Source: an uncultured Lentisphaeria bacterium (GTDB taxonomy: Bacteria > Verrucomicrobiota > Lentisphaeria > Victivallales > UBA1829). Taken from it: a DNA stretch of 64,000 nt. Location of the stretch: contig CAJKAR010000014.1 in assembly GCA_905197955.1 (NCBI GenBank), positions 15,465 through 79,464 on the forward strand, given 5' to 3'. Shown one piece after another: positions 9,143-64,000 of this stretch; the stretch's first letter is position 1; each line of letters opens with the position of its first letter. Made by a program: the position numbers and the translations under genes. The notes below the pieces were generated by a model that saw only the letters and a list, made by a program, of their open reading frames with translations, was not told the origin of the DNA and ran no database searches.

Positions 9143-10308
9143 TCCGCAGTCTCCTTTTTTATTTCTGCAAGAGCGTCGATAAAACGCTGTACGTCTTCTT
9201 CTGTATGTTCCGCGTTCAGGGAAACGCGGAGTCGCGAGGTCCCCTCCGGCACGGTCGGCGGACGGACCGCAAGCGCCAGAAATCCTTTTTCATAAAGCCT
9301 GCGGGAAAATTCCAGCGTCTCGTTTGCATCGCCAATGATGACGGGAAGAATCATCGTTTCCGAATTTCCGCAGTTGAATCCCAGTGAACGGATCGCTTTC
9401 CTTGCGGAATCGGAAAGTGCGTGAAGATGCGCTCGGGCATCCTCCATTTCCTGGGTCTGTATCAGATCGACAGCCGCCGAGATGGCTCCCAGCGTCGATG
9501 GCGGCATGCCCGTACTGAAAATGAACGGAGAGCAGACATTCACAAAATACTCCCGGAGTTCCTTCGAGCAGAGAATGCAGCCGCCGAATGCTCCCATTGC
9601 CTTGCTGAATGTGGCAAGAGCAACATCGCAGTTTTCCGGCGAGGCCAGTCCTTTTCCGCGGCTTCCCGTGACACCCGTGCCGTGGGCGTCGTCAAGAAAC
9701 AGAATGGCATCGTTCTCCCGGGAGATACTGTACAGTTCGGAGAGCGGTGCAATATCGCCGTCCATGCTGAATACCGTATCGGAGGCAATCAGTTTTTCCG
9801 GATTCTGAGACATCGCAAGCATTTTCCGCAGATGCGCCGGATCGGAATGCCGGTAGCGGCGGAATTCCGCCTGAGAGAGAATACATCCTGTGTTGATGCT
9901 CGCATGATTCAGCTTGTCTGCAAAGATTGCCGAATCTCTTCCCGCAAGCGCGGAAACAATTCCGACATTCGCCGCATACCCGGAACTCAGAATCAATGCG
10001 CTTTCAAATCCTTTCCATGCGGCGATCTTCTCCTCCAGTTCAAGACACGCTCCGCTGGTTCCCGAAATGAGACGCGAAGCTCCGCAGGATGTTCCGTAAC
10101 ACTCCGTCCACTCCACCGCGCCCCGGATCAGTTCGGAGCGCATGGAAAGTCCCATATAGTCGTTGGAGGAGAAGTCTACCAGCTTTTTCCCGTCGATGAT
10201 GCATTCCCGCGATGAGATCCTCCGCACCGCCCGCAGAGAGCGCAGACATCCCCTGGAGCGGATGGATTCCATCCGCTCGCGGATTCTGCTTTCAATCGGA
10301 GAACTCAT
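9139..10308 (-). CDS. bioF: PLP-dependent alpha-oxoamine synthase, 8-amino-7-oxononanoate synthase-like
   Basis: 389 aa; FSSNDYMGLS, ISGTSGACLELEEKIAAW and the PLP-lysine context TFSKAMGAFGG. It could alternatively be another family member (Kbl/SPT-like). Confidence 0.6.
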   Translation of the reverse strand: MSSPIESRIRERMESIRSRGCLRSLRAVRRISSRECIIDGKKLVDFSSNDYMGLSMRSELIRGAVEWTECYGTSCGASRLISGTSGACLELEEKIAAWKGFESALILSSGYAANVGIVSALAGRDSAIFADKLNHASINTGCILSQAEFRRYRHSDPAHLRKMLAMSQNPEKLIASDTVFSMDGDIAPLSELYSISRENDAILFLDDAHGTGVTGSRGKGLASPENCDVALATFSKAMGAFGGCILCSKELREYFVNVCSPFIFSTGMPPSTLGAISAAVDLIQTQEMEDARAHLHALSDSARKAIRSLGFNCGNSETMILPVIIGDANETLEFSRRLYEKGFLALAVRPPTVPEGTSRLRVSLNAEHTEEDVQRFIDALAEIKKETAE

Positions 10309-52428: not shown

Positions 52429-53469
52429 TTAGATTCCGCATGTTTTGCCGGATGTTGTTTCTGAATCTGGCTTTGGCTGCGCATCTTTGATTTCGGATGG
52501 GAAAAGATAACGGGCCGGAGCTGTTTTATTTTCCGTCTTTCCGGTCAGGATATCCAGTACGGCTTCTCCCATTTTTTCGAACGCCTGAACAACGGTGCCG
52601 ACCGGATAGTAAAGTTGACGCGCCAGAGTATTGCCGAATCCGAAGATCCGGCAGGAATCGGGGATCCGGATTCCGAATCGCAGAGCGGTAATCAGAACCT
52701 GGGCGGCGCGGTTGTCGTCGAAACAGATGAATGCCGTCGGGCGTTCTTCTTCCGTGAGGTGGAACCAGGATTCCAGATCCGCAAAATGTTCCACGGGATC
52801 ATGATGAGCGGAGATCCAGTGAGAATTGAGTTTCAGTCCGAATTCCTGGAGGCCGGCGGCGACGCCGTTGCAGCGTTCGACACTGTAACGGATATCATCT
52901 TCCGGCTTGACGACTGCAATTCGGCGATGTCCTTCCGCGAAGAGTTTCCGGACGATTTCTCTTGTGGCCGCCTGGTCGTCGGAATAGACCAGCGGAAAAT
53001 CATTCCGGCAACTGTCCTCGATATAGCAGAGAGCGATGTCGCGTGCTTTGCAGAAGTTTCCAATTTCCTCCTGAAGAAGCGGTGAAAAGGCAAAACAGGC
53101 GGCATAGCGGATATTGTACTTGATAAGTTCCTGCTGAACAAGTTCCAGATTGGACAGATTGCAGATTCGGACATTATATCCATGCTGTGCCGTTGCATTC
53201 AGAAGTCCGAGCAGGATTTCATTTGCCGCTGCGCCCCGGACTGCACTGTGACTGAATTCCAGCAGCAATGCAATTGTTTTGGAAAGTCCGGTCCGGATTT
53301 CCGCTGCAGCCTCGTTCCGGCTGTAACCGGATTCGATGACCGCTTGAAGAATTTTTGCCCGTGTTTCCGGTCGCAGAGCTTTTGCATGAGCGTGGTTGTT
53401 CAAGACCTGAGAGACCGCCGCTGTGCTGACTCCAGCTTTTTTTGCAATATCTGCAAGCGTTATGCGCAT
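52429..53469 (-). CDS. LacI-family transcriptional regulator
   Basis: MRITLADIAKKAGVSTAAVSQVLNN is a LacI HTH, followed by a PBP effector domain. Confidence 0.88.
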   Translation of the reverse strand: MRITLADIAKKAGVSTAAVSQVLNNHAHAKALRPETRAKILQAVIESGYSRNEAAAEIRTGLSKTIALLLEFSHSAVRGAAANEILLGLLNATAQHGYNVRICNLSNLELVQQELIKYNIRYAACFAFSPLLQEEIGNFCKARDIALCYIEDSCRNDFPLVYSDDQAATREIVRKLFAEGHRRIAVVKPEDDIRYSVERCNGVAAGLQEFGLKLNSHWISAHHDPVEHFADLESWFHLTEEERPTAFICFDDNRAAQVLITALRFGIRIPDSCRIFGFGNTLARQLYYPVGTVVQAFEKMGEAVLDILTGKTENKTAPARYLFPSEIKDAQPKPDSETTSGKTCGI

Positions 53470-54839
53470 GAAGAGGTCCTTTCCTTTTTCCGGTGGTTCG
53501 GCAGATAAGCGCCGATCTTGAGCAGAGCATCCTGAAGTTCCGATACCGGCAGTTCGCGGGGAGAAATCTTCCGTTCCGCAGCAAGCGCCGCCGCCATTCC
53601 TGCCGCCTGACCGGTGATGAAGCAGCCCGCCTGAACACGGAGAGACCCATGCATTCCGCGATCCGTACTGACACAGCGTCCGGCGGAAAGAACATTGTCC
53701 ACTTTTTGCGGAAGCAGGATCCGATAGGGAATTCCATAACTTTCCCCGGGCGTTCGATAGTGATAATGTTCGAAGAGAGAGGTTCCGGGATCCGGCTCCG
53801 AATCCGCCGGCGGACGGGTCCCGTGCAGATCAATCGGATAAGCGTAACGTCCGATCTCATCCTCGAAAACGGCCCGGCGGACAAAATCTTCCACTCCGAG
53901 CACATAGTCTCCGAGAATCCTGCGGGATTCCCGGATTCCGAGGGTCAGAGAGGTCCAGAGCATGTGCGCGTTTTCACATCCTGGGACATAGTTCCGATAG
54001 TATCGTTCGTATTCCAGAGCAAGTTTTCTTCCCTGGATCATGCCGCGGGTGACGGTGCGTTCGTCCCGTGCATCGATTCCGTAGACATGGCCGACATTCC
54101 CCCAGCCGGAATCCGCCACCGTGTGAAGGATTCCGGGCAATCCCGTATCGCGTTCGGAAAAGACTCCATCGTGATAGGCCTGCTTCAATGCTTTTCCATC
54201 GGTCCAGATCTCCTTGCGTGACCAGTCGATTCCGGACCAGAGGGAGCAGAGTGTCGCCGCCTGAGCCAATCCCTCCTCATCGCCGAATTCCACGGGAGCT
54301 CCCGCCATGGCGGCAAGATCTCCATCGCCGGTGGCATCGATAAACACTCCGGCTTTGATTGCGAAAACTCCGCTTTTTGCCGCACAGATGGCATGTGTGA
54401 CCCGGTTCCCTTCCATCTGCAAATCAATCAGAGAGGTATGGAATGTGAAATCCATGCCGGATTCTGCCGCCATTTCATCGTACACCCGTTTCAGGGATTC
54501 CGGATTGTAAATGAATCCGCCGATCTCAGAAGGATGACTGCCGTAACGCATCTCCGGCCCCGCTCCCCCTGAACGGAAAAGACGATCATAAACTTCTCTG
54601 CCGAATCCTCCGGCAAGAAAATGAATTCCATCGGTGGGCCGGCAGATGAATGGAATTCCAGCCGAGGTTCCCATGCCGCCGAAACCTCCAAGAGTTTCAA
54701 CAAGAAATACTTTTGCTCCGGCTCGCGCCGCTGTGACGGCGGCGGCCATACCAGCCGGACCGCCGCCCGCGACAAAAACATCCACAGAATCGCGAATCGG
54801 AAGTTGTCGGGTGTAGTCAAGTTTTTCCTGCATAGTCAT
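53460..54839 (-). CDS. FAD-dependent oxidoreductase
   Basis: VDVFVAGGGPAGMAAAVTAARAGAKVFLVE is the GxGxxG dinucleotide fold; 459 aa. It overlaps the LacI start by 10 nt. Confidence 0.75.
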   Translation of the reverse strand: MTMQEKLDYTRQLPIRDSVDVFVAGGGPAGMAAAVTAARAGAKVFLVETLGGFGGMGTSAGIPFICRPTDGIHFLAGGFGREVYDRLFRSGGAGPEMRYGSHPSEIGGFIYNPESLKRVYDEMAAESGMDFTFHTSLIDLQMEGNRVTHAICAAKSGVFAIKAGVFIDATGDGDLAAMAGAPVEFGDEEGLAQAATLCSLWSGIDWSRKEIWTDGKALKQAYHDGVFSERDTGLPGILHTVADSGWGNVGHVYGIDARDERTVTRGMIQGRKLALEYERYYRNYVPGCENAHMLWTSLTLGIRESRRILGDYVLGVEDFVRRAVFEDEIGRYAYPIDLHGTRPPADSEPDPGTSLFEHYHYRTPGESYGIPYRILLPQKVDNVLSAGRCVSTDRGMHGSLRVQAGCFITGQAAGMAAALAAERKISPRELPVSELQDALLKIGAYLPNHRKKERTSSCA

Positions 54840-54887
54840 AAGCCTCTGGCGTTTTTTTGAGTTAGTAAATCGTTTTATTAAAATTTA

Positions 54888-54915
54888 ATTATACAATAAA
54901 ATCTTAAAAAGTCAA
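54888..54915 (-). promoter_or_regulatory. Candidate sigma70 promoter of the FAD-oxidoreductase/LacI/prepilin/GH operon
   Basis: The minus strand reads TTGACT (54915-54910), 16 nt, TATAAT (54893-54888), about 48 nt upstream of ATG 54839. Confidence 0.55.
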
Positions 54916-55123
54916 GAGGGTATATCGTTTTTTTCTTTGTCGGGCGAAGAAAAAGGCAACTATCAGAGAGGTGTTTTTCCTATTCCGGACCGGTGCGCTG
55001 TCTGGAAGGAAGTCCGTTTCCCGCAAAAAACAGCCAGTAACAGTTCCGAAAGAGTTCTTTGTAAAAAATCGAAAAAAATCTATTTTCAATGCAACTTTTT
55101 TTCCTTTGAAACGTTTTTATAGT

Positions 55124-55133
55124 GAAAATTTTC
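55124..55133. promoter_or_regulatory. 10-bp perfect palindrome GAAAATTTTC, copy 1 (candidate regulator site upstream of the RiPP operon)
   Basis: The identical palindrome recurs at 55171-55180; TGAAAATTTTC is shared (11 nt). Confidence 0.3.
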
Positions 55134-55170
55134 TTCCGGACAGAAAATACTCTGTCATGGGGAGGAAAAT

Positions 55171-55180
55171 GAAAATTTTC
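55171..55180. promoter_or_regulatory. 10-bp perfect palindrome GAAAATTTTC, copy 2
   Basis: See copy 1. The centres are 47 bp apart, 143-199 bp upstream of ATG 55323. Confidence 0.3.
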
Positions 55181-55322
55181 AAAGGGAAAACGTCTCTGCC
55201 AATGGTACAACTCCTTTTCTTGAAAAGAAAATTATCACTTGTTTTTCTTTTAAGAACAGGATATGTTACCGCCGCAGTCGCTGTGTGGAAAAGAAACTCA
55301 TAACACGAAAAAGGAGGACCCT

Positions 55323-55640
55323 ATGGCTTGGACACAAGCAGAAATCGAAACATGTATCGAAAACTGCAAGAAGAAAGCTGCTGTTGATGCGGATTTCCGT
55401 AAGAAACTGCTCGCAGATCCCGTCGCTGCAGTAAAAGAGATCTCCGGCAAGGAGGTGCCGGCAGGATTCAAAATTAAAGTTCTCGAAAATGATCCGAGCT
55501 ACGATGCAACCTTCGTTCTTCCGCCGCTCGTTTCGGGAAATATTTCCGACAGCGAACTGGATGATGTTACCGCCGGAATCTGCGGTTTGCTGAGTTGCGG
55601 AATGAAGGCCTGCGCCACAGAGGGAAATGGATCAAAATAA
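55323..55640 (+). CDS. NHLP (nitrile hydratase-like leader peptide) family RiPP precursor 1; predicted core ICGLLSCGMKACATEGNGSK
   Basis: 105 aa; the leader ...KKAAVDADFRKKLLADPVAAVKEISGKEVPAGFKIKVLENDPSYDATFVLPPLVSGNISDSELDDVTAG matches the NHLP pattern and ends in a double-glycine-type AG. AGGAGG lies 6 nt upstream of ATG 55323; the track ORF's 5' extension was rejected. Confidence 0.88.
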   Translation: MAWTQAEIETCIENCKKKAAVDADFRKKLLADPVAAVKEISGKEVPAGFKIKVLENDPSYDATFVLPPLVSGNISDSELDDVTAGICGLLSCGMKACATEGNGSK

Positions 55641-55642
55641 TT

Positions 55643-55679
55643 ACAGAAACATCCGGTTTCGCAGAGACCCTGTTTCTGT
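55643..55679 (+). other. Stem-loop between precursor genes 1 and 2
   Basis: ACAGAAACA (55643-55651) pairs with TGTTTCTGT (55671-55679). The 19-nt loop can itself form a short helix. No U-tract follows. Confidence 0.5.
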
Positions 55680-55737
55680 GTTACGGAATAACTCAAACAT
55701 AGCAATCTGAAATCACTTAAATCAAGGAGTTCGAATT

Positions 55738-56055
55738 ATGACCTGGACACAGACAGAAATTGAAGCATGCATCGTCAACTGCAAGAAAAAAGCCGCCGTC
55801 GATGCTGATTTCCGTAAAAAACTGCTGGCGGATCCCGCTGCGGCAGTAAAAGAAATTTCTGGCAAGGAGATTCCAGCAGGATTCAAGATCAAAATCCTCG
55901 AAAACGATCCGGGCTATGATGCCACTTTCGTTCTCCCTCCGCTCGTTTCGGGAAATCTCTCCGATAAAGAACTCGATGAAGTGGCAGCCGGCATCTGCGG
56001 TTTGCAGACCTGCGCCATGGATGCGTGCGGCGTCGCCGGGAACGGATCAAAATAA
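55738..56055 (+). CDS. NHLP family RiPP precursor 2; predicted core ICGLQTCAMDACGVAGNGSK
   Basis: 105 aa; it is a paralogue of precursor 1 with the leader conserved and the core diverged. AAGGAG lies 8 nt upstream. Confidence 0.88.
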   Translation: MTWTQTEIEACIVNCKKKAAVDADFRKKLLADPAAAVKEISGKEIPAGFKIKILENDPGYDATFVLPPLVSGNLSDKELDEVAAGICGLQTCAMDACGVAGNGSK

Positions 56056-56106
56056 ATCCGTCGGAAAAACCTGTACCCGGAAAAATCAAATCAGGAGAAA
56101 AGAACC

Positions 56107-56418
56107 ATGGCTTGGACTCAACAGGAAATCAATGAGTGCATCGCAGCCTGCAAACAAAAGGCTGCAACAGATGCTCAGTTTCGTCAGAAACTGCTGAAGG
56201 ATCCGGGAGAGGCAATCCGGGAAATTTCCGGCAAGGAAATCCCGGCAGGATTCCGGATTAAAGTGCTGGAAAGCGATCCGAATTATGATGCGACATTCGT
56301 GCTGCCTCCTCCGATCTCCGGCAATCTTTCTGACAAGGATCTGGATGGTGTAACTGGCGGCAGTCTCGTCTGCCCGGTCGAGGTCTGTGCTGCAAACGCC
56401 TGCGGTTGGGATAAGTAA
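56107..56418 (+). CDS. NHLP family RiPP precursor 3; predicted core SLVCPVEVCAANACGWDK
   Basis: 103 aa; the leader ...DAQFRQKLLKDPGEAIREISGKEIPAGFRIKVLESDPNYDATFVLPPPISGNLSDKDLDGVTGG ends in GG. AGGAG lies upstream. Confidence 0.88.
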   Translation: MAWTQQEINECIAACKQKAATDAQFRQKLLKDPGEAIREISGKEIPAGFRIKVLESDPNYDATFVLPPPISGNLSDKDLDGVTGGSLVCPVEVCAANACGWDK

Positions 56419-56443
56419 TTGCAATGCCGGAGGGACTTCCGCG

Positions 56444-57739
56444 ATGATGTGGTCAAGATATAATCGGGTATTCCATTCGCAAAAACGGGGATGGCTCCTC
56501 TACAACGCCCTCTCCAACACGTTTCTTGCGCTGCCGGATTCGTTCGGCAAAACGTTCGAAGCTCTGCGCGCCGGGGAGGAGTTCCTCTGTGAGGATCCCG
56601 GTATGACATTGCAGCTGATTGCGGCAAAAGCGCTTGTCGATCCCGGCGAAGATGATCGGCTGCGCGATGTGCTCCGAATGAAACGGCGTATGGCGGATTT
56701 CAGCGAACGCATTTTGCTGCTGACCATTGCTCCGACCCGGAACTGCAACTTCGCATGTCCTTACTGCTTCGAGGAAAACCGCGCAGGGATCAACATGAGC
56801 CGCGAAACGGAAGAGGAGCTGGTTCGCTTTGCCGAACGCTTCCAGCCGGGACAGCTGTTCGGCGTGACCTGGTTCGGAGGAGAACCCCTGCTGCGCTTTG
56901 AACAGATCCGGCGCCTCTCTGAACGCTTCCAGTCCATGGATTTCAAACACTACCGGGCCTCCCTGATCACCAACGGATATCTGCTGGATGCGGACAAGGC
57001 GGCACGGCTGGATGAACTGGCGATCCAGGAGGTGCAGATCACTCTTGACGGTCCTGAAGAAGTCCACGACCGCCGCAGAACCCTTGTCTCCGGGGGGCCG
57101 ACCTTCCGGAAGATTCTGGGAAATATTGATACTCTGTTTGCCTCCGCATGGACGGGACATCTGCAGCTCAGGGTCAATGTGGACCGGACCAATGCGGAAG
57201 ATTACCATCGGATCTACGAATTTCTGTACAGCAGATATCCGGAAAAGAGGGATCGTCTGCATGTCTATCCGGGAATTGTGCATGCGATGGGCAAGGAGAA
57301 TCCGGATACCGTCTGTCTTTTCAATGTTGACGAGGCCGCGGATTTCCAGATCGAACAGTTCCGCCGGTATGGGGTGCGGAACCAGACGTTCTATCCTCTC
57401 CGTAAATTGTTCAACTGCATCGCGGCAAGACGGAACGGATATGTCGTCGGCCCGGGAGGAGAACTTTACAAGTGCTGGAACGACATCGGAATCGAAAAGC
57501 GAATCGTTGGCTATGTGGATCCCCGGAAAATGTGGAACAACGAATTGCTCGCAGAGTGGCTGGAAGGACAGAATGCTCTGAATGATCCGGAGTGTCTTGC
57601 ATGTGGGCTGATGCCGATCTGTGACGGAGGCTGTCCGGCTCAGCGCCGGGAAAAGGCTCCTCACTGTTCCCGTTACCGGAATCGCCTGCCGGAACTGCTG
57701 GAGGCTCATTATGACTCTGTGCGGAATGAAAAAAATTGA
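56444..57739 (+). CDS. Radical SAM / SPASM-domain peptide maturase
   Basis: The CX3CX2C motif is TRNCNFACPYCFE. The full seven-Cys SPASM pattern is CIAARRNGYVVGPGGELYKC (CX13GX4C), CLACGLMPICDGGC (CX2CX5CX3C) and a trailing C in KAPHC. About 105 aa precede the cluster motif. ATG 56444 has GGAGG upstream. Confidence 0.85.
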   Translation: MMWSRYNRVFHSQKRGWLLYNALSNTFLALPDSFGKTFEALRAGEEFLCEDPGMTLQLIAAKALVDPGEDDRLRDVLRMKRRMADFSERILLLTIAPTRNCNFACPYCFEENRAGINMSRETEEELVRFAERFQPGQLFGVTWFGGEPLLRFEQIRRLSERFQSMDFKHYRASLITNGYLLDADKAARLDELAIQEVQITLDGPEEVHDRRRTLVSGGPTFRKILGNIDTLFASAWTGHLQLRVNVDRTNAEDYHRIYEFLYSRYPEKRDRLHVYPGIVHAMGKENPDTVCLFNVDEAADFQIEQFRRYGVRNQTFYPLRKLFNCIAARRNGYVVGPGGELYKCWNDIGIEKRIVGYVDPRKMWNNELLAEWLEGQNALNDPECLACGLMPICDGGCPAQRREKAPHCSRYRNRLPELLEAHYDSVRNEKN

Positions 57740-58688
57740 AATCGAGCCGCTTCATCTTTTCAATCTGAAGCACCATCGGTCATTTTTCACGGCGCGTCAG
57801 CAGGCGCTGTTCGGCGATTCCATGCCGGGCGGAAAGCATCTGTTTTTCGGCGCGCGCTGCGGGGAGGGGGCCGCTGGAGTGATCTGGGGGGGGCCGGACA
57901 GGGATCCGACGGGGATGTTTCTGTTTCATCTCTATGTGGCGGAGGAGTTCCGGCGCTGCGGAATTGGACGGATTTTGCTGGAAAAACTCTGTGCAGCTGC
58001 GTCGGAGGAGGGGTTCCGGAAAGTTTATGTGCGTTTCCGTCGCAGGAACAGTCAGGAAAGCGCGTTGTGGTGCCTGCTGAAGGGTTTTCCCGGTCCCTGT
58101 GTCCGACTGGAGACGGTTTTCCGGCTGGAGCTTCCCTCGGGAGCCGAACGGGAGCTGCGGGTGCGGACCCGGACCGGCCGCTGGCAGATACTGCCGCTGG
58201 AAACGGTTGTCGCAGGGCTCGGAGAGGAAAAACGGATGGAAATGGTGGAACGGGAACGCCGTTTCCTGAAAGGACTCGAACATCTGTCGCTGACGGATCC
58301 GGCGGAATGGAGAAAATTTCTCCGTGGAGATGTCTTTCTTGCGCCGTTTGGCGGCGAGTCCGGACTGCCCCGGTTCGGACGGGCATGCGTGGAACGGGAA
58401 TCGGGCCGTCTCGCCGGATGGATTTCCGGAGAGATCAAAGAGGGGGAACTGCATGTGCGCCGCGCTTTTGTCGAACCGGAGTTCCGGGGCGCGGAAGTCA
58501 TGGCGCTGTTGGCAGAAGAAGTCTATGCGTGGATGCACCGGACCGGCGGAACGGCCCGGTGGGAAGTGAAATATTGGAATCAGGTGTTTCAGCGGGGATG
58601 TCTCCGCTACGCCCGACGGTTGAAAATAGGCGAATCCATCGAGGATTGCGTCAAAATAATCCCTGCAGGAACAGGAGAGGAAAAATGA
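57711..58688 (+). CDS. Two-domain GNAT-family acyltransferase (N-terminal domain intact, C-terminal domain degenerate)
   Basis: LFHLYVAEEFRRCGIGRILLEKL is GNAT motif A (R-x-x-G-x-G). The second half, LHVRRAFVEPEFRGAEVMALLAEEV, is GNAT-like but lacks GxG. GGAGG lies 6 nt upstream of ATG 57711, and the gene overlaps the rSAM gene by 29 nt. Confidence 0.7.
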   Translation: MTLCGMKKIEIEPLHLFNLKHHRSFFTARQQALFGDSMPGGKHLFFGARCGEGAAGVIWGGPDRDPTGMFLFHLYVAEEFRRCGIGRILLEKLCAAASEEGFRKVYVRFRRRNSQESALWCLLKGFPGPCVRLETVFRLELPSGAERELRVRTRTGRWQILPLETVVAGLGEEKRMEMVERERRFLKGLEHLSLTDPAEWRKFLRGDVFLAPFGGESGLPRFGRACVERESGRLAGWISGEIKEGELHVRRAFVEPEFRGAEVMALLAEEVYAWMHRTGGTARWEVKYWNQVFQRGCLRYARRLKIGESIEDCVKIIPAGTGEEK

Positions 58689-59026
58689 ACAAAATCGAAG
58701 AAAATCTGGTAAAATGGAAAGAGATTGAAGCAAAGGTTATTGCGCGCGCTCTGACGGATGAGGCCTTCCGCACACGTCTGGAACAGGATCCCCGTGAAAC
58801 CATCGAAACCGAGCTCCAGTGCAAAATCAGCGGCGATGTGACATTCAAAGTCCGCGAAGAAGAAAATCCCGGAGAAATGACGATCCTTCTGCCGAAACTC
58901 CCCAAAAAAGAGACGGGGGAACAGCTTTCCGATCGCGAAATCGACGATATCGTTGCGGCTGGAAATATCGGAATTTCGGTCGGTATTGTCACCACGGATA
59001 TCGTCCTGGTCAAGGGAATCGTCTGA
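58685..59026 (+). CDS. NHLP family RiPP precursor 4 (proteusin-like); predicted core NIGISVGIVTTDIVLVKGIV
   Basis: 113 aa; the leader ...ARALTDEAFRTRLEQDPRETIETELQCKISGDVTFKVREEENPGEMTILLPKLPKKETGEQLSDREIDDIVAAG is followed by a Cys-free beta-branched hydrophobic core. The ATG overlaps the GNAT stop (ATGA at 58685-58688). It is embedded in the longer track ORF 58067..59026. Confidence 0.8.
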   Translation: MNKIEENLVKWKEIEAKVIARALTDEAFRTRLEQDPRETIETELQCKISGDVTFKVREEENPGEMTILLPKLPKKETGEQLSDREIDDIVAAGNIGISVGIVTTDIVLVKGIV

Positions 59027-59046: not shown

Positions 59047-60393
59047 TTGAACTTCCCCGATTACAAGCGTTTTTTGGAATTCTACATGGGCGACGGCTCC
59101 TTCCGAGAGCGTTTTGATCGTGCTCCTGCCGCCGCTCTGCAGGATGCGGATCTGCATCCGGAGATGCCCCTGGAGTTCCTGCAGGCGGTGGCCGCCGGCT
59201 GCCGCAGCCGTGATTTCCGGCAGGTGACGGAGCATTTTCCTGAGGTGCTGGCAGTTCTGCGTCATTTTGCGGAAGAGCAGGAGGAGTGCAATCCGTTCAC
59301 CGTGCGCTGTCGGAAAGAGTGTTCTTCCCCCAATGCGCGTTTTGAAGCATGGCGGGAACGGAAACGGCAGGGGAACCGGGCAGTTCTCCAGCCGCTGTAT
59401 TTTGACCGGGCGTTTAATATCGCGGCGGCTTTCGAGCTTGGAGTCGGATGTTCCGGACAGTGCCGGTTCTGCTGTTTTGACGCGCCGCCTCTGCGCGAGA
59501 ATTTCCGGTACACTCCGGAAAATCGTGCATTATGGCGGGATATCCTCTCCCTTTTCCGGGATCGTTTTGGCGGTCGGGCTGGAGCGGCGGCTCTCTACTG
59601 GGCTACCGATCCTTTTGACAATCCGGATCTGGAACTGTTTTATGCGGATTTTTATGAAACGAATCAGGTCTGGCCGCCGATCACCTCGCGCTGGCCGCTT
59701 CGAGATCCCGCTCGAACTCGCCGTTTTGCGGAAGAAGGAAGGAAACATGGACAGCCATGCTGCCGTTTTTCCATCACGCAACGCGGAGAGCTGCGGAGAT
59801 TCTTCCAGGAGTTTTCCGCAGCGGAAACGATGGATTGGAGTCTTGTTCTGAACAATCCGGAATCGCTGAACTGCTATTCAATCAGCGGACGCGCACGGGA
59901 AAGGGATCCCGAAACGCCGGAAAAGTATCAGGAGGGAACGACAAGCTGCTGTCTTTCCGGATTTCTGGTGAATCTCTGCCGCAGAACGGTTGCGCTGGTA
60001 TCGCCCTGTGAACCGGGGGAGGCGGATCCGTTTGGATATCATCAGTGGGATGCGGCGGAGTTCCGCGATGCGGGGGAACTGGAGCAGGTGCTTGAAAAAA
60101 TGCAGAAGGAGTTCTTTCTCCAGGGACCGGAGGAACTGGCACGTCTGCGACTTTCTCCGGAATGGAACTTTACGATTTCGGGGGGAAGGGCGGAATTTGT
60201 CTCCCGCTATCTGGTACGCCGTTTTGAGGTGTCGCCGTCGGAACAGAATCTGCTGGAAAAGTTGAAAGCCGGAATTTCCCGGCAGGAATTTGAACAGGAG
60301 TTCGGCGGAATGCTTTCGCTGTTCGGGAACGTGCATGCACTGCTCGACTCCCTGTGGAAATTCGGAATGTTGTCGGAGGAGGAAGCATGTTGA
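59047..60393 (+). CDS. Radical SAM-like protein of unassigned subfamily
   Basis: 448 aa. GVGCSGQCRFCCFD contains CX3CX2C with the usual aromatic before the third Cys. Further Cys pairs are QPCCRF and TSCCLSGFLVNLC...SPC. The TTG start at 59047 lies 7 nt after AAGGAG; ATG 59086 is an alternative. Confidence 0.55.
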   Translation: MNFPDYKRFLEFYMGDGSFRERFDRAPAAALQDADLHPEMPLEFLQAVAAGCRSRDFRQVTEHFPEVLAVLRHFAEEQEECNPFTVRCRKECSSPNARFEAWRERKRQGNRAVLQPLYFDRAFNIAAAFELGVGCSGQCRFCCFDAPPLRENFRYTPENRALWRDILSLFRDRFGGRAGAAALYWATDPFDNPDLELFYADFYETNQVWPPITSRWPLRDPARTRRFAEEGRKHGQPCCRFSITQRGELRRFFQEFSAAETMDWSLVLNNPESLNCYSISGRARERDPETPEKYQEGTTSCCLSGFLVNLCRRTVALVSPCEPGEADPFGYHQWDAAEFRDAGELEQVLEKMQKEFFLQGPEELARLRLSPEWNFTISGGRAEFVSRYLVRRFEVSPSEQNLLEKLKAGISRQEFEQEFGGMLSLFGNVHALLDSLWKFGMLSEEEAC

Positions 60394-62321
60394 ATCCCGT
60401 TGATATCACGCTGGTGAATATGCCGTTTGCGATGCCCCTGGTGGCTCCGCTGGGAATGAATGTGCTGTGCGGAGCGCTGCGCAAAGCCGGATTGAGGGTC
60501 CGCTGCCGTTTTGCCAATGTTGATTTTGCGGAACGGGTTCCGGAGGAGCTGTATGACTATCCGGCATCGAACGGATTGAATGTGGATGTGATGCTTGGAG
60601 ACTGGCTGTTTTCGGAATCGCTGTTCGGGGCGGATCCGGAACGGGACCGTCGCTTTCTGGAGATGTTGAAGGAGGAAAACGAGCATGACCGGCTGGTCTG
60701 GAACCGTCGTTACCGGTCGCTGGACGATCTTCTGCGCGATCTGCCGCTGCTGAAACGCGAAGCGGTCCGCTGCGTGGAGAAAACCGCGGCAGAACTGGCG
60801 GATGGTTCCACCCGGATTGTCGGGTGTTCAAGTACTTTTTTCCAGCGTCTGGCCTCTCTGGCTCTTCTGAAGCGGGTTCGGGAGCTGAATCCGGAAGTCG
60901 TGACCTTTCTGGGCGGATCCGATTGCGAAAGCGAAGCCGGGATGGAGGCGGTTCTCCGGTTTCCGTTTCTCGACTATGTGTTCTGCGGAGAAGGGGATCT
61001 GACCGTGCCGGAAATGGCTCTCCGGATTGTGCGGAACGAGCGTTCCGCCGCCCTGCCGTTCGGTGTGTTCGACCGGGCAAAGGCGGAACGGGGAATCCCG
61101 GAAGTTGCATGTGTCCCGGGGGAACTGATCGCGGAACCCGACCCCGCGGACTATTATGAACGAATGAACGGGAGCCGTTTGAACCGGGCATCGGTCCGGA
61201 AATATTTTCTGGAGAGTTCGCGCGGCTGCTGGAAGGGGCAGAAGCAGCACTGCAGTTTCTGCGGACTGAACGGAGGACGAATCGCCTACCGGCGCAAAGA
61301 TCCCGAGCGTGTTCTGGCGGAACTGCGCCGAGGTTACCGGGAATTCGGCTGCCGGCTTTTCCTGACTTCCGATACCGTGCTGGATCTGAACCGGATGCGC
61401 GCTCCGCTCCGCACCTTCGGAGAGGAAACGCCCGATACGGTCATCAGCTTTGAAACGGTTTCAACCCTGACCGAAGAGCAGGTGCGGTTTCTTGCCGACA
61501 GCGGTGTGATGGTTATTCAGAGCGGAATCGAAACGCTTCATCCGAATCATATCCGCCTTCTGAACAAAGGCAACGATACGCTGTCAAGCATTGCACTCCT
61601 GAAATTCACACTGGAGAACCGCATTCAAGTTCTCTGGAACATGCTCAGCGGCATACCGGGCGATTCTCCCGAAGAATATCGCTGGGTGAAGGAACTGGTT
61701 CCGAAAATCATTCATCTGCCGGGACCGAACTGGGGGGCGATCCGCTTCGACCGCTTCAGTTTGTACTGGAAGGAACCGGAACGTTTCAATCTCCGTCTGG
61801 AACCGATGAAAGGATATCGCATTCTTATGCCGGAAGGTTCGGTTTCACTGGATCGCTGGGCGCTCTTCTACGACAATCGGAACCCCGGAGCCTGCACGCC
61901 GCAGAAGGAGATCGCCGATGTGCGCAAAACAGTCGATGAATGGTATCATGATTCTCATCCGGCGAAATATCATCTGGAATTTGCCGAACCGGATCTTCTC
62001 CGTGATACCCGTCCCTGCGCGGCGGTTCCCGAATACCGGCTCAGCCGGGCGGAACAGGCGATCCTCCAGGCGGCACGCTCTCCGGCAGATCGGACCGCTG
62101 TGGAAGCTGCGACTGGAAATTCTATGAAAATCATTGAAAAATTGAAGGAATACGGTTATCTTATTGAAGTGGAAAATCGACTTCTGGCGCTTCCGCTGAT
62201 TCCTCCTTCCGCGGAACGGATCGCGAAAAGCAGACTGCGCTACCGGAGTCTTTTCCGGGGACATACACCACCTGCCGCGGCCGTGCCGGAGGATACTCCG
62301 CTGATCAGGGTCGGCTCTTAA
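60387..62321 (+). CDS. Cobalamin-binding-domain radical SAM enzyme (RiPP-maturation C-methyltransferase-like, class B)
   Basis: 644 aa. ITLVNMPFAMPLVAPLGMNVLCGALRKAGL is the typical B12-domain start of this family. ESSRGCWKGQKQHCSFCGLNG has CX7CX2C spacing, as I recall for the TIGR03975-type family. GGAGGAGG lies upstream of ATG 60387, which overlaps the previous stop by 7 nt. Confidence 0.75.
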   Translation: MLNPVDITLVNMPFAMPLVAPLGMNVLCGALRKAGLRVRCRFANVDFAERVPEELYDYPASNGLNVDVMLGDWLFSESLFGADPERDRRFLEMLKEENEHDRLVWNRRYRSLDDLLRDLPLLKREAVRCVEKTAAELADGSTRIVGCSSTFFQRLASLALLKRVRELNPEVVTFLGGSDCESEAGMEAVLRFPFLDYVFCGEGDLTVPEMALRIVRNERSAALPFGVFDRAKAERGIPEVACVPGELIAEPDPADYYERMNGSRLNRASVRKYFLESSRGCWKGQKQHCSFCGLNGGRIAYRRKDPERVLAELRRGYREFGCRLFLTSDTVLDLNRMRAPLRTFGEETPDTVISFETVSTLTEEQVRFLADSGVMVIQSGIETLHPNHIRLLNKGNDTLSSIALLKFTLENRIQVLWNMLSGIPGDSPEEYRWVKELVPKIIHLPGPNWGAIRFDRFSLYWKEPERFNLRLEPMKGYRILMPEGSVSLDRWALFYDNRNPGACTPQKEIADVRKTVDEWYHDSHPAKYHLEFAEPDLLRDTRPCAAVPEYRLSRAEQAILQAARSPADRTAVEAATGNSMKIIEKLKEYGYLIEVENRLLALPLIPPSAERIAKSRLRYRSLFRGHTPPAAAVPEDTPLIRVGS

Positions 62322-62333
62322 ACAGGATATAGA

Positions 62334-63665
62334 ATGAACAGAAATCTTTTCCGGAAAAATGCAATGCTCAAAGCGGCATCGCCATTTGAGTTGAATCGTC
62401 AGCTTTCGATTTTCAACGGGCGCGAAGCGCTGGCACTTCTGGTGCTGGGAATCACGGTGATTGCTCTGCTGGCATGGGGAATTCTCGGCGTGATTTACGA
62501 ACGGGTCAGCGGAAGCGGCATTGTGATGCTGCAAAGTCAGTTCGATACAATTCAGGCGCCCGCCGGAGGAGTGCTGATCTCCTTTGACATTGAAACGGGA
62601 GATTTTGTCAAGCGCGGGCAGATGGTCGGACGGCTCTATTCGTTTGCCGATCTGGAAAATCTGAGGGAGAACTTTCAGAAATTGAAAATGCTCCAGAGCA
62701 ATCTGGAGGAGGTGCGCCGTCATACCGAAGGTCTCCAGAAAGGAAACCGGACCCATATCCGGAACATGACCGGAGTGCTGGATGAAACAGTCAAACGGCT
62801 CGACAAGGAACTGGAATGGCTCGGGGAGTTCGTGAAAAAGGGGAAAGCCCTTGCCGAACGCGGCGCAATCTCGCAGAAACAGTGGCACGAGTATCAGGAA
62901 CAGTATCATACCAAGCTCAAAAACCGTTCGGATTACCTGCTCAAAAAACTGGAGGAAAGCAATTCGTTTTCCGAGACGGAATTCACTCTTGCCAAAGAGG
63001 TTATGTCGATGGAGGCCGAAGTGAAGTCGGCTTTGTTCGAAGTCGAGCAGCTCCGCAACAAACTGGAATACAATACACGGATCGTGAGCACCCATTCCGG
63101 AACCGTGACCAGCGTTAACTATACGCCGGGCTCCATTGTGACGGCGGAAGCGACGCTCGCCAGCCTGATCGACCTCGATGACGAAACCGATGAAACCTGG
63201 GAACTTTATGCCTATTTTTCCGTTGCCGACAGTAAAAAGATCCGTCCCGGAATGAGCGCGATCATAACACCTTCCTCGGTCAAAGCCGAACGCGACGGTT
63301 CCATTCGCGGCACCGTCACCCATGTCGGCACTTACATCCTTCCGGTGGAATCCATTGACCGCACATTTCGCAATGCTGCGTTTGCCCAGTATCTGCTCAA
63401 GGAATGTGCGAATATGCCGGTCGAGGTCCGCATTCTGATGTCCCGGGATCGGAACTCCCCGAACGGTTTCCGCTGGACCTCCGGTTCTGGACCGGATATC
63501 AGAATCACTGCGGGAACTCTCTGTTCCGCCAGTGTGGTCGTGGAGAAGGATCCGCCGCTTGAATTGGTTTTTTCCGGACTGCGCAAATTCATGTTCGGCA
63601 GGGGCGTCATGGAAGAGTTCCAGTTGAAAAATGCCCGGACCGGCGCAGGAGGATCCGCCGAATGA
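62334..63665 (+). CDS. HlyD-family membrane-fusion / bacteriocin secretion adaptor protein
   Basis: 443 aa. It has an N-terminal TM (ALALLVLGITVIALLAWGILGVI), a lipoyl-like IQAPAGGVLISFDIETGDFVKRGQMVGRL, a long coiled-coil and a C-terminal beta-barrel. Confidence 0.8.
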   Translation: MNRNLFRKNAMLKAASPFELNRQLSIFNGREALALLVLGITVIALLAWGILGVIYERVSGSGIVMLQSQFDTIQAPAGGVLISFDIETGDFVKRGQMVGRLYSFADLENLRENFQKLKMLQSNLEEVRRHTEGLQKGNRTHIRNMTGVLDETVKRLDKELEWLGEFVKKGKALAERGAISQKQWHEYQEQYHTKLKNRSDYLLKKLEESNSFSETEFTLAKEVMSMEAEVKSALFEVEQLRNKLEYNTRIVSTHSGTVTSVNYTPGSIVTAEATLASLIDLDDETDETWELYAYFSVADSKKIRPGMSAIITPSSVKAERDGSIRGTVTHVGTYILPVESIDRTFRNAAFAQYLLKECANMPVEVRILMSRDRNSPNGFRWTSGSGPDIRITAGTLCSASVVVEKDPPLELVFSGLRKFMFGRGVMEEFQLKNARTGAGGSAE

Positions 63666-64000
63666 TCTTCCGGAAGAAGCGGGTTGACTGCCCGATGGTT
63701 CTGCAGATGGAGGCCGCTGAATGCGGCGCCGCTGCGCTGTCAATGGTGATGTCGTACCACGGAGTGATTGTTCCGCTGGAACGTCTCCGTGATGAATGCG
63801 GCGTTTCCCGCGACGGCAGCAAGGCGTCCAGTCTGCTCAAAGTCGCCCGCAGCTACCATTTCAAAGCGCAGGGGTATCGGGAGGAGGAACTCGATGCGCT
63901 GAATCATCACGCTCTGCCCATGATCCTGTTCTGGAATTTCAATCATTTTGTGGTTTACACGGGGCGCAAAGGCAGAAAGTTCTGCATCAATGATCCGGCG
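63662..64000 (+). CDS. Peptidase-C39-domain bacteriocin ABC exporter, 3'-partial (runs off window end)
   Basis: MIFRKKRVDCPMVLQMEAAECGAAALSMVMSYHG... contains the catalytic Q...C of C39, and ...NFNHFVVY contains the catalytic His. The ATG overlaps the HlyD stop (ATGA). The frame stays open to base 64000, and the ORF is not in the ORF track because it has no stop. Confidence 0.85.
   Translation, partial: MIFRKKRVDCPMVLQMEAAECGAAALSMVMSYHGVIVPLERLRDECGVSRDGSKASSLLKVARSYHFKAQGYREEELDALNHHALPMILFWNFNHFVVYTGRKGRKFCINDPA

Follow-up and report, generated by a model that had tools for sequence, protein, structure and literature searches.

A 64,000-nucleotide stretch (hereafter the window) of contig CAJKAR010000014.1 from an uncultured Lentisphaeria bacterium, a gut member of the Victivallales, carries three tandem genes at 55323–56418 on the + strand. 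These are real, conserved and mutually paralogous precursors of what appears to be a secreted, enzyme-modified peptide, with cores that each contain three cysteines at exact five-residue spacing. We propose, with a probability of about one in two, that the products are three-pentad peptides modified by a radical S-adenosylmethionine (rSAM)/SPASM enzyme, which would close one Cys(i)-(i+3) thioether ring per pentad before export by a C39-peptidase transporter.

Precursors 1 (55323–55640, +) and 2 (55738–56055, +) are each 105 amino acids long, and precursor 3 (56107–56418, +) has 103. A Shine-Dalgarno-like AGGAG lies upstream of all three, extended to AAGGAGG for precursor 1. Each passes the NCBIfam model for NHLP leaders, TIGR03793 (51.6, 58.3, and 55.8 bits for precursors 1, 2, and 3, respectively; curated cut-off 50.9), and in each case the match stops exactly at residue 85, the glycine of AG, AG, or GG. 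The alignment to the solved NHLP leader 9cjx (E = 2e-16) spans residues 3–85 and stops at the VAGG of 9cjx. The 85-residue leaders are thus encoded at 55323–55577 (85 codons, ending in VTAG), 55738–55992 (VAAG), and 56107–56361 (VTGG), and are followed by cores of 18–20 residues: ICGLLSCGMKACATEGNGSK at 55578–55637, directly before the stop codon, ICGLQTCAMDACGVAGNGSK at 55993–56052, and SLVCPVEVCAANACGWDK at 56362–56415. Cysteines occupy core positions 2/7/12 in precursors 1 and 2 and 4/9/14 in precursor 3, giving CX4CX4C in each, and all three cores end in lysine. A first-pass annotation, made from the sequence alone, had described three tandem NHLP-leader precursors with these cores, the terminal lysine, and a CX3C motif in the leader, and every one of these features is reproduced here. 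Its cleavage site after AG/AG/GG agrees both with the end of the NHLP model and with a C39-peptidase exporter gene that starts at 63662. An AlphaFold2 (AF2) model of precursor 1 (predicted local distance difference test score, pLDDT, 56.7) has a disordered core and is uncertain beyond this and one leader helix described below.

The closest relatives come from uncultured Victivallales and Victivallis, in the phylum Lentisphaerota. We gathered 80 loci around homologs of the window rSAM enzyme from a genome collection (L numbers below) and extracted their NHLP precursors with a profile built from known precursors. Orthologs of precursor 1 are present in L004, L012, and L013. The order of two or three Cys precursors, rSAM enzyme, GNAT-like protein, a fourth precursor, epimerase, methyltransferase, HlyD-type adaptor, and C39 exporter is kept in L001, L004, and L013; in L006, it is the same up to HlyD, where the locus ends, and L012 ends after the GNAT-like gene.

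The leaders of genes 1 and 2 differ at 28 codons by synonymous changes only and at 12 by amino acid changes, and their cores at 3 and 7, respectively (Fisher test, p = 0.03), exactly as had been counted by hand. In a formal Nei-Gojobori estimate, the ratio of nonsynonymous to synonymous divergence (dN/dS) is 0.067 for the leader (dN 0.075, dS 1.12) and 0.31 for the core (dN 0.24, dS 0.77). The leader values point to an old duplication (dS ∼1.1) and a tightly constrained leader, and both the age of the duplication and purifying selection on the leader had been correctly anticipated. The accompanying idea of a diversifying core does not survive: against the 0.31 between paralogs, orthologous cores give 0.03–0.15. 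Thus, the core of precursor 2 compared with its counterpart in L004 has a dN/dS of 0.033 (1 nonsynonymous and 6 synonymous changes), and that of precursor 1, likewise compared with L004, has 0.09. The core ratio stays below 1 wherever it can be estimated, with dS saturated in several comparisons, and positive selection on the core is rejected. As dS is near saturation in many pairs, all of these figures are rough. The paralogs seem to have diverged and afterwards each to have been kept constant, a history compatible with three distinct products. Together, the dN/dS values far below 1 and the synteny conserved in L001, L004, L006, L012, and L013 establish the precursors as genuine.

Since precursors 1–3 are paralogs and not independent of one another, support for a core motif has to come from other loci. 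Within the Victivallales clade, a homolog search finds CX4CX4C and the terminal lysine in every full-length, frame-intact precursor, so that the refuting case named in the first-pass annotation, homologs that lose the Cys spacing, does not apply there. Motif statistics were computed on 36 non-redundant cores from loci outside this clade. There, the spacing CX4C makes up 34 of the 84 Cys-Cys gaps (40%, with ∼8% expected); shuffled cores contain 6.9 ± 2.6, and none of 5000 shuffles reaches 34. Of 119 residues at Cys+3, 83 (70%, over a background of 24%) are N, D, Q, E, H, or K, compared with 33 ± 4.4 in shuffles that hold the cysteines fixed (0/5000 reach 83). Glycine or alanine is found at Cys+1 in 53% of instances outside the clade and 82% inside it, Cys+4 is A, V, or G, and 24 of the 36 cores have K or R at the C terminus. 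The polar preference at Cys+3 persists per locus even where CX4C is rare (8/9 in L017 and 4/5 in L010), which identifies the repeating unit as a pentad, C-[G/A]-x-[D/N/Q/E/H/K]-[A/V/G]. The CX4C spacing arises where pentads are packed head to tail, with the window cores representing three such units; Cys+3 is polar in seven of their nine pentads. The residues between the cysteines, previously taken simply to vary, are therefore not free.

The proposal of a fixed Cys scaffold holds within the Victivallales clade and fails in the wider family, where the number of cysteines per core ranges from 1 to 13, three being the commonest, and the loops differ. The first loop has 4, 6, 8, or 9 residues; spacings include CX8CX4C in P0026, CX3C in L007, CX8-9CX5C in L008, and CX6CX4C in L014, and there are cores with a single cysteine, such as NINVCGAQAGSVTKE. 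No core residue other than cysteine is shared by all members. Searching 1.8 billion representative proteins with a profile returned 414 NHLP relatives at E ≤ 1e-10, and many of the top matches have cores of the pentad kind. In many related clusters (L010, L011, L014, L016, L017, L020, L023, L071, and P0026), a hydrophobic segment, VS..LIIS.CA.A..G, precedes the Cys pentads of one precursor, which may indicate a product of several components: a single membrane-active peptide plus a number of short ones.

Immediately downstream of precursor 3, at 56444–57739 (+), is a 431-amino acid rSAM/SPASM peptide maturase, the putative cross-linking enzyme. It contains the rSAM cluster motif CX3CX2C at residues 101–108 and a complete set of SPASM cysteines (C325-X13-G-X4-C344, C384-X2-C-X5-C-X3-C397, and C408) in addition to C291, and scores 53 bits against the SPASM domain model TIGR04085 (cut-off 27). 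The best structural match in the PDB to its AF2 model (pLDDT 88.8) is CteB, the thermocellin thioether synthase (5why/5wgg; template modeling score 0.68, E = 7e-19), which aligns over the full length, including the N-terminal peptide-recognition domain, with anSME, TigE, SuiB, and ChlB next. CteB is also the best PDB match by sequence, with anSME second. The five best NCBIfam models are all maturases of Cys-rich peptides, namely Clo7bot TIGR04334 (197 bits; cut-off 600), TIGR04463 (192; 525), FlmE/OhkG (159; 500), CefB NF038107 (155; 600), and the geopeptide maturase (149; 400); further scores are 101 bits for PapB NF047865 (cut-off 340), 81 for the anaerobic sulfatase maturase TIGR03942 (349), and 75 for the SCIFF maturase (425). 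None of 20 relatives of the enzyme reaches any equivalog cut-off, that of CefB included.

The association between this enzyme and Cys-core NHLP precursors extends through Victivallales, Lachnospiraceae, Streptococcaceae, Clostridiales, Defluviitaleaceae, Acidobacteriota, and Muiribacteriota. It is the sole enzyme that always adjoins such precursors, with a GNAT-like protein as the usual companion. The minimal locus, L007, consists of precursor, rSAM enzyme, and exporter only, and L008 has three Cys precursors, the rSAM enzyme, a GNAT-like protein, and an exporter, and is devoid of precursor 4, epimerase, and methyltransferase. As the one constant partner across loci, the SPASM enzyme is the right candidate, in line with the first-pass annotation, and the substrate tolerance suggested there fits with a single enzyme serving between three and seven different cores. 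The system is an uncharacterized variant of the rSAM/SPASM-modified Cys-rich peptides, a general kind that is familiar from genome mining and, in that respect, not surprising.

In the mechanism that we envisage, the folded leader would dock on the rSAM/SPASM enzyme, probably aided by the GNAT-like partner. The enzyme would cleave SAM and take a hydrogen from an acceptor residue, whose carbon would then be joined to the sulfur of a cysteine positioned at an auxiliary Fe-S cluster. Each pentad would thereby gain a single small in-line thioether ring, most likely from Cys(i) to i+3, giving three rings and a mass change of −6 Da per core. The GNAT may acylate a lysine, the invariant one at the C terminus being the candidate, and a C39-peptidase ATP-binding cassette (ABC) exporter, together with HlyD, would cut after AG/GG and export the product, which may then exert some biological activity. 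We favor one ring per pentad because of the CteB-like fold, the SPASM cysteines, the Cys counts (one in some cores and most commonly three), and the precedent of PapB, which forms an in-line thioether ring at each of six tandem CX3D/E motifs and also accepts CXnD motifs with n = 0–6 (PMC9413430). The freyrasin system, PapA/PapB, a ranthipeptide system, resembles the window system in its tandem short Cys-acidic motifs and in the small in-line thioether rings made by one tolerant SPASM enzyme (PMC9413430). In contrast to the PapA motif, CX3D/E with a period of about six, the window motif is C-x-x-Z with a period of five, where Z includes N, Q, H, and K. The leader type is also different, and the window enzyme falls well below the PapB cut-off. 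With thermocellin, CteA/CteB, a SCIFF ranthipeptide, the window system shares the arrangement of peptide-recognition domain, rSAM barrel, and SPASM domain with two auxiliary clusters, whereas the precursors of SCIFF peptides are short, lack an NHLP leader, and follow another Cys pattern.

Several observations weigh against this interpretation. Cys+3 is often Lys, His, Asn, or Gln, whereas chemistry of the PapB type needs a carboxylate; the residue is non-polar in two of the nine window pentads (Leu in unit 1 of precursor 1 and Ala in unit 3 of precursor 2). The L008 and Muiribacteriota loci fit the pentad poorly. The enzyme shares only ∼18% identity with CteB when the structures are aligned, and it reaches no NCBIfam equivalog cut-off, the best score being 197 bits of the 600 required. 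Finally, the coenzyme A (CoA) motif of the GNAT-like protein is degenerate in most homologs from Firmicutes and Acidobacteriota, yet the cores at these loci end in K or R.

The absence of a PapB-type precedent for K, H, N, or Q at Cys+3 makes a bond to C-alpha, as in sactionines, instead of to C-beta or C-gamma, as in ranthipeptides, a serious alternative. More broadly, the thioethers could have another topology or involve another atom, with sulfur joined to the C-alpha of small residues next to the cysteines or with hairpin-like nested links of the kind in classical sactipeptides, and the polar Cys+3 residue would then be structural. Sactionine formation is independent of the side chain and would accommodate K, H, N, and Q, the G/A at Cys+1 and A/V/G at Cys+4 are constrained as strongly as the polar position, and CteB and related enzymes are the nearest structures. 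However, if the side chain played no part, so sharp a residue preference at exactly Cys+3 would be difficult to account for, and in a nested hairpin all acceptors must follow all donors, for which precursor 3 offers four residues after its last cysteine. Overall, we regard these topologies as unlikely, if deserving of attention. The polar residue could also serve solubility or metal binding instead.

A different possibility is that the thiols stay free and, with Asp, Asn, His, or Glu at i+3, bind metal or form disulfides, the rSAM enzyme carrying out epimerization or a carbon-carbon link elsewhere. A cysteine with D, E, or H at i+3 is a plausible metal-ligand pattern, the leaders of the Victivallales clade contain two extra cysteines, and there are other modified Cys-rich peptides that chelate copper, of which the bufferins are an example (PMC12452194). 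Against this, cores with one cysteine exist and three is the commonest number, N, Q, and K are frequent at Cys+3, and the window has no genes for metal transport or metal sensing beside the cluster. Moreover, cysteine is common to all cores and always found beside an enzyme whose nearest relatives act on cysteine. We consider free thiols distinctly improbable. Disulfides as the general role of the cysteines are ruled out by the same one-Cys cores and prevalence of three.

The rank of anSME as second-best match, by structure and by sequence, raises the further prospect of Cys oxidation to formylglycine, or of some other change that leaves the peptide uncross-linked, perhaps followed by condensation, for example with the terminal Lys. 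The TIGR03942 score of the enzyme is only 81 bits against 349, the cores do not have the sulfatase-type motif C-x-P/A-x-R, and we found no precedent in modified-peptide systems, so that oxidation of this type seems very improbable indeed.

Returning to in-line thioether rings, the five-residue period links the window cores to CefA, the NCBIfam "Cys-every-fifth" peptide. The core of precursor 3 scores 16.1 bits against the CefA model NF038108 (E = 0.008), below its cut-off of 30, and those of precursors 1 and 2 do not match it; all three have Cys at every fifth residue, with three repeats only. A bridging case is provided by L061 (7508–7837; Prolixibacteraceae), in which a precursor with a short GG leader carries 13 cysteines, each exactly five residues from the next (CVSNQCGADACAGWVCGGDACAGNACGGDAC...), and scores 59.4 bits against the CefA model, above the cut-off. 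The enzyme beside it is 33% identical to the window enzyme and scores 175 bits against CefB, likewise below the cut-off of 600. With pentads that pass CefA next to a homologous rSAM enzyme, L061 identifies the window cores as a short, NHLP-led form of the Cys-every-fifth core type. The two systems have in common the strict Cys period, the same pentad flavor (C-G/A-x-D/N-A), and an rSAM/SPASM maturase of the same broad clade, and differ in the 85-residue NHLP leader and the only three pentads of the window precursors. Neither this link nor the polar Cys+3 position nor the conserved GNAT-like partner featured in the first-pass annotation. A literature search that left most subscription journals outside found nothing on the chemistry of CefA/CefB or on "Cys-every-fifth" or "Clo7bot," and nothing describing the window family; matches to CefB, FlmE, and OhkG were unrelated.

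What is new is that this clade of enzymes belongs to no named equivalog and extends widely through the gut and rumen anaerobes of several phyla, and that its substrates have in common a sharply delimited pentad, from which a specific pattern of rings, open to testing, can be predicted. We think it possible, on the doubtful side, that these peptides constitute a new class of RiPP (a peptide made by the ribosome and modified after translation), in which a SPASM enzyme would zip up tandem C-x-x-Z pentads, building a ladder of thioether rings that each span four residues, with acceptors that include Asn, Gln, His, and Lys, residues new to this chemistry, while the GNAT partner would present the leader or lipidate the C-terminal Lys. 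Solving one member would give the chemistry of a large family that includes the uncharacterized Cys-every-fifth peptides, a tolerant enzyme for stapling short peptides at a five-residue period, and the role of a catalytically degenerate GNAT-like protein in such pathways. The cluster is therefore a solid lead for natural-product chemistry.

The two-lobed GNAT-like protein (57726–58688, +; 320 amino acids; Pfam Acetyltransf_1, E = 1.3e-16) is encoded by a gene that overlaps the rSAM stop codon by 14 nt and the start of precursor 4 by 4 nt. Its CoA motif, RRCGIG (R-x-x-G-x-G), is intact. The protein is homologous (hhalign probability 99.1%, E = 6e-19) to proteins of ∼300 amino acids beside the enzyme in Firmicutes, Acidobacteriota, and Muiribacteriota that are Pfam-negative and unrecognized by NCBIfam as well (L010, 3589–4533; L011, 3685–4596; L020 and L071, both 9301–10239; L014, 5487–6404). 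A PDB sequence search with the window protein was uninformative. GNATs from NHLP clusters transfer acyl groups to the side chains of Lys or Orn, with terminal Lys residues listed as putative sites (PMC8784127), and a C-terminal Lys can be acylated by KspN (PMC13647313). The window cluster resembles those of the selidamides, NHLP/Nif11 lipopeptides acylated by GNATs, in having a GNAT encoded in an NHLP cluster and Lys at the core terminus; unlike them, it has no arginase or lanthionine synthetase, and the CoA motif is lost in the homologs from other phyla. The likeness is that of a GNAT assigned by its general domain and R-x-x-G-x-G only. Acylation of the terminal Lys is possible in the window. 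For the family, the idea is weak, since cores keep their terminal K or R both where the CoA motif is degenerate and in L007, which has no GNAT-like gene. The family-wide role of the protein may instead be non-catalytic, with a GNAT fold turned accessory protein.

The leader CX3C motif occupies residues 11–16 of precursors 1 (CIENCK; 55353–55370, +), 2 (CIVNCK; 55768–55785, +), and 3 (CIAACK; 56137–56154, +), and precursor 4 reads KVIARA in its place, so the earlier consensus CI(E/V/A)(N/A)CK and its absence from precursor 4 are correct. In the AF2 model of precursor 1, Cys11 and Cys15 both lie within a helix predicted, with modest confidence, for residues 5–21. The same two positions are filled by V/A/L/T/I and V/I/L/A/M in 122 other NHLP relatives and by V and I in 9cjx, which bears out the suspicion that the motif is untypical of NHLP leaders. 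The Cys pair is restricted to the Victivallales clade (11 unique leaders), and the L007 and L008 leaders retain the second Cys only. By these alignments, the motif is real and atypical, yet dispensable for the wider family; within the clade, the pair might be involved in Fe-S or redox handling of the substrate.

The genes downstream of the precursors are tightly packed or overlapping. Precursor 4 (58685–59026, +) has an NHLP leader of another type, 28% identical to that of precursor 1, and a Cys-free hydrophobic core, NIGISVGIVTTDIVLVKGIV, that is near-invariant in L001, L004, L006, and L013, where the enzymes are only 59%–91% identical. It is followed by a PoyD-like rSAM amino acid epimerase (59047–60393, +; TIGR04517, 305.8 bits, just under the cut-off of 325), a B12-binding rSAM RiPP C-methyltransferase (60354–62321, +; TIGR03975, 618 bits, cut-off 282), an NHLP bacteriocin-system HlyD-type secretion adaptor (62334–63665, +; TIGR03794, 464 bits, cut-off 156), and the N terminus of the C39-peptidase ABC exporter (63662–64000, +). 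The exporter gene runs off the window; its ..MVLQMEAAECGAAALSMV.. matches the start of the C39-ABC gene in L004, the ortholog that carries the Pfam assignment. From its family, this exporter is expected to be the protease that cuts after AG/GG.

Precursor 4 is probably the substrate of the epimerase and methyltransferase, and looks like a polytheonamide-style proteusin that uses the same exporter as the Cys peptides. The operon as a whole shares with the polytheonamide-type proteusins its NHLP leaders, PoyD-like epimerase, B12 C-methyltransferase, and NHLP-type HlyD and C39 exporter; precursor 4 resembles a typical member, and precursors 1–3 have a separate leader type. We know of no characterized proteusin with reported Cys cross-linking by a SPASM enzyme. 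In Firmicutes loci, an epimerase directly follows the SPASM enzyme and the precursors are of the Cys type only, so that precursors 1–3 may be epimerized as well.

A hairpin at 55642–55680 (+) directly follows the stop codon of precursor 1, with an inner stem at 55655–55669 from the terminator scan. The 105-nt spacer containing it folds at −21.2 kcal/mol (z = −2.05, which is weak evidence), and no similar structure follows precursor 2 or 3. The hairpin may be a partial terminator or an mRNA stabilizer. An Rfam scan of 54700–56500 gave no credible match, and promoter and terminator scans gave numbers of matches near the shuffle expectation. Upstream of precursor 1, a block at ∼55086–55135 (ATGCAACTTTTT..TGAAACGTTTTTATAGTGA.AATTTTC) is conserved with L004 and not with L013, and may be a promoter or operator. 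In L003, three small, very hydrophobic open reading frames (ORFs; 34–1196), with no equivalent in the window, lie upstream of the precursors and could encode immunity proteins.

Long ORFs on the − strand at 56453–57709, 57780–58733, and 61845–63743 lie antisense across the rSAM, GNAT, and HlyD genes; they match no family and are most likely artefacts of composition. The genes at 52429–54839 (−), for a LacI-type regulator and a 459-amino acid ORF with an apparent dinucleotide-binding glycine motif at its N terminus, point away from the cluster; they appear to be unrelated to it and to mark its upstream edge.

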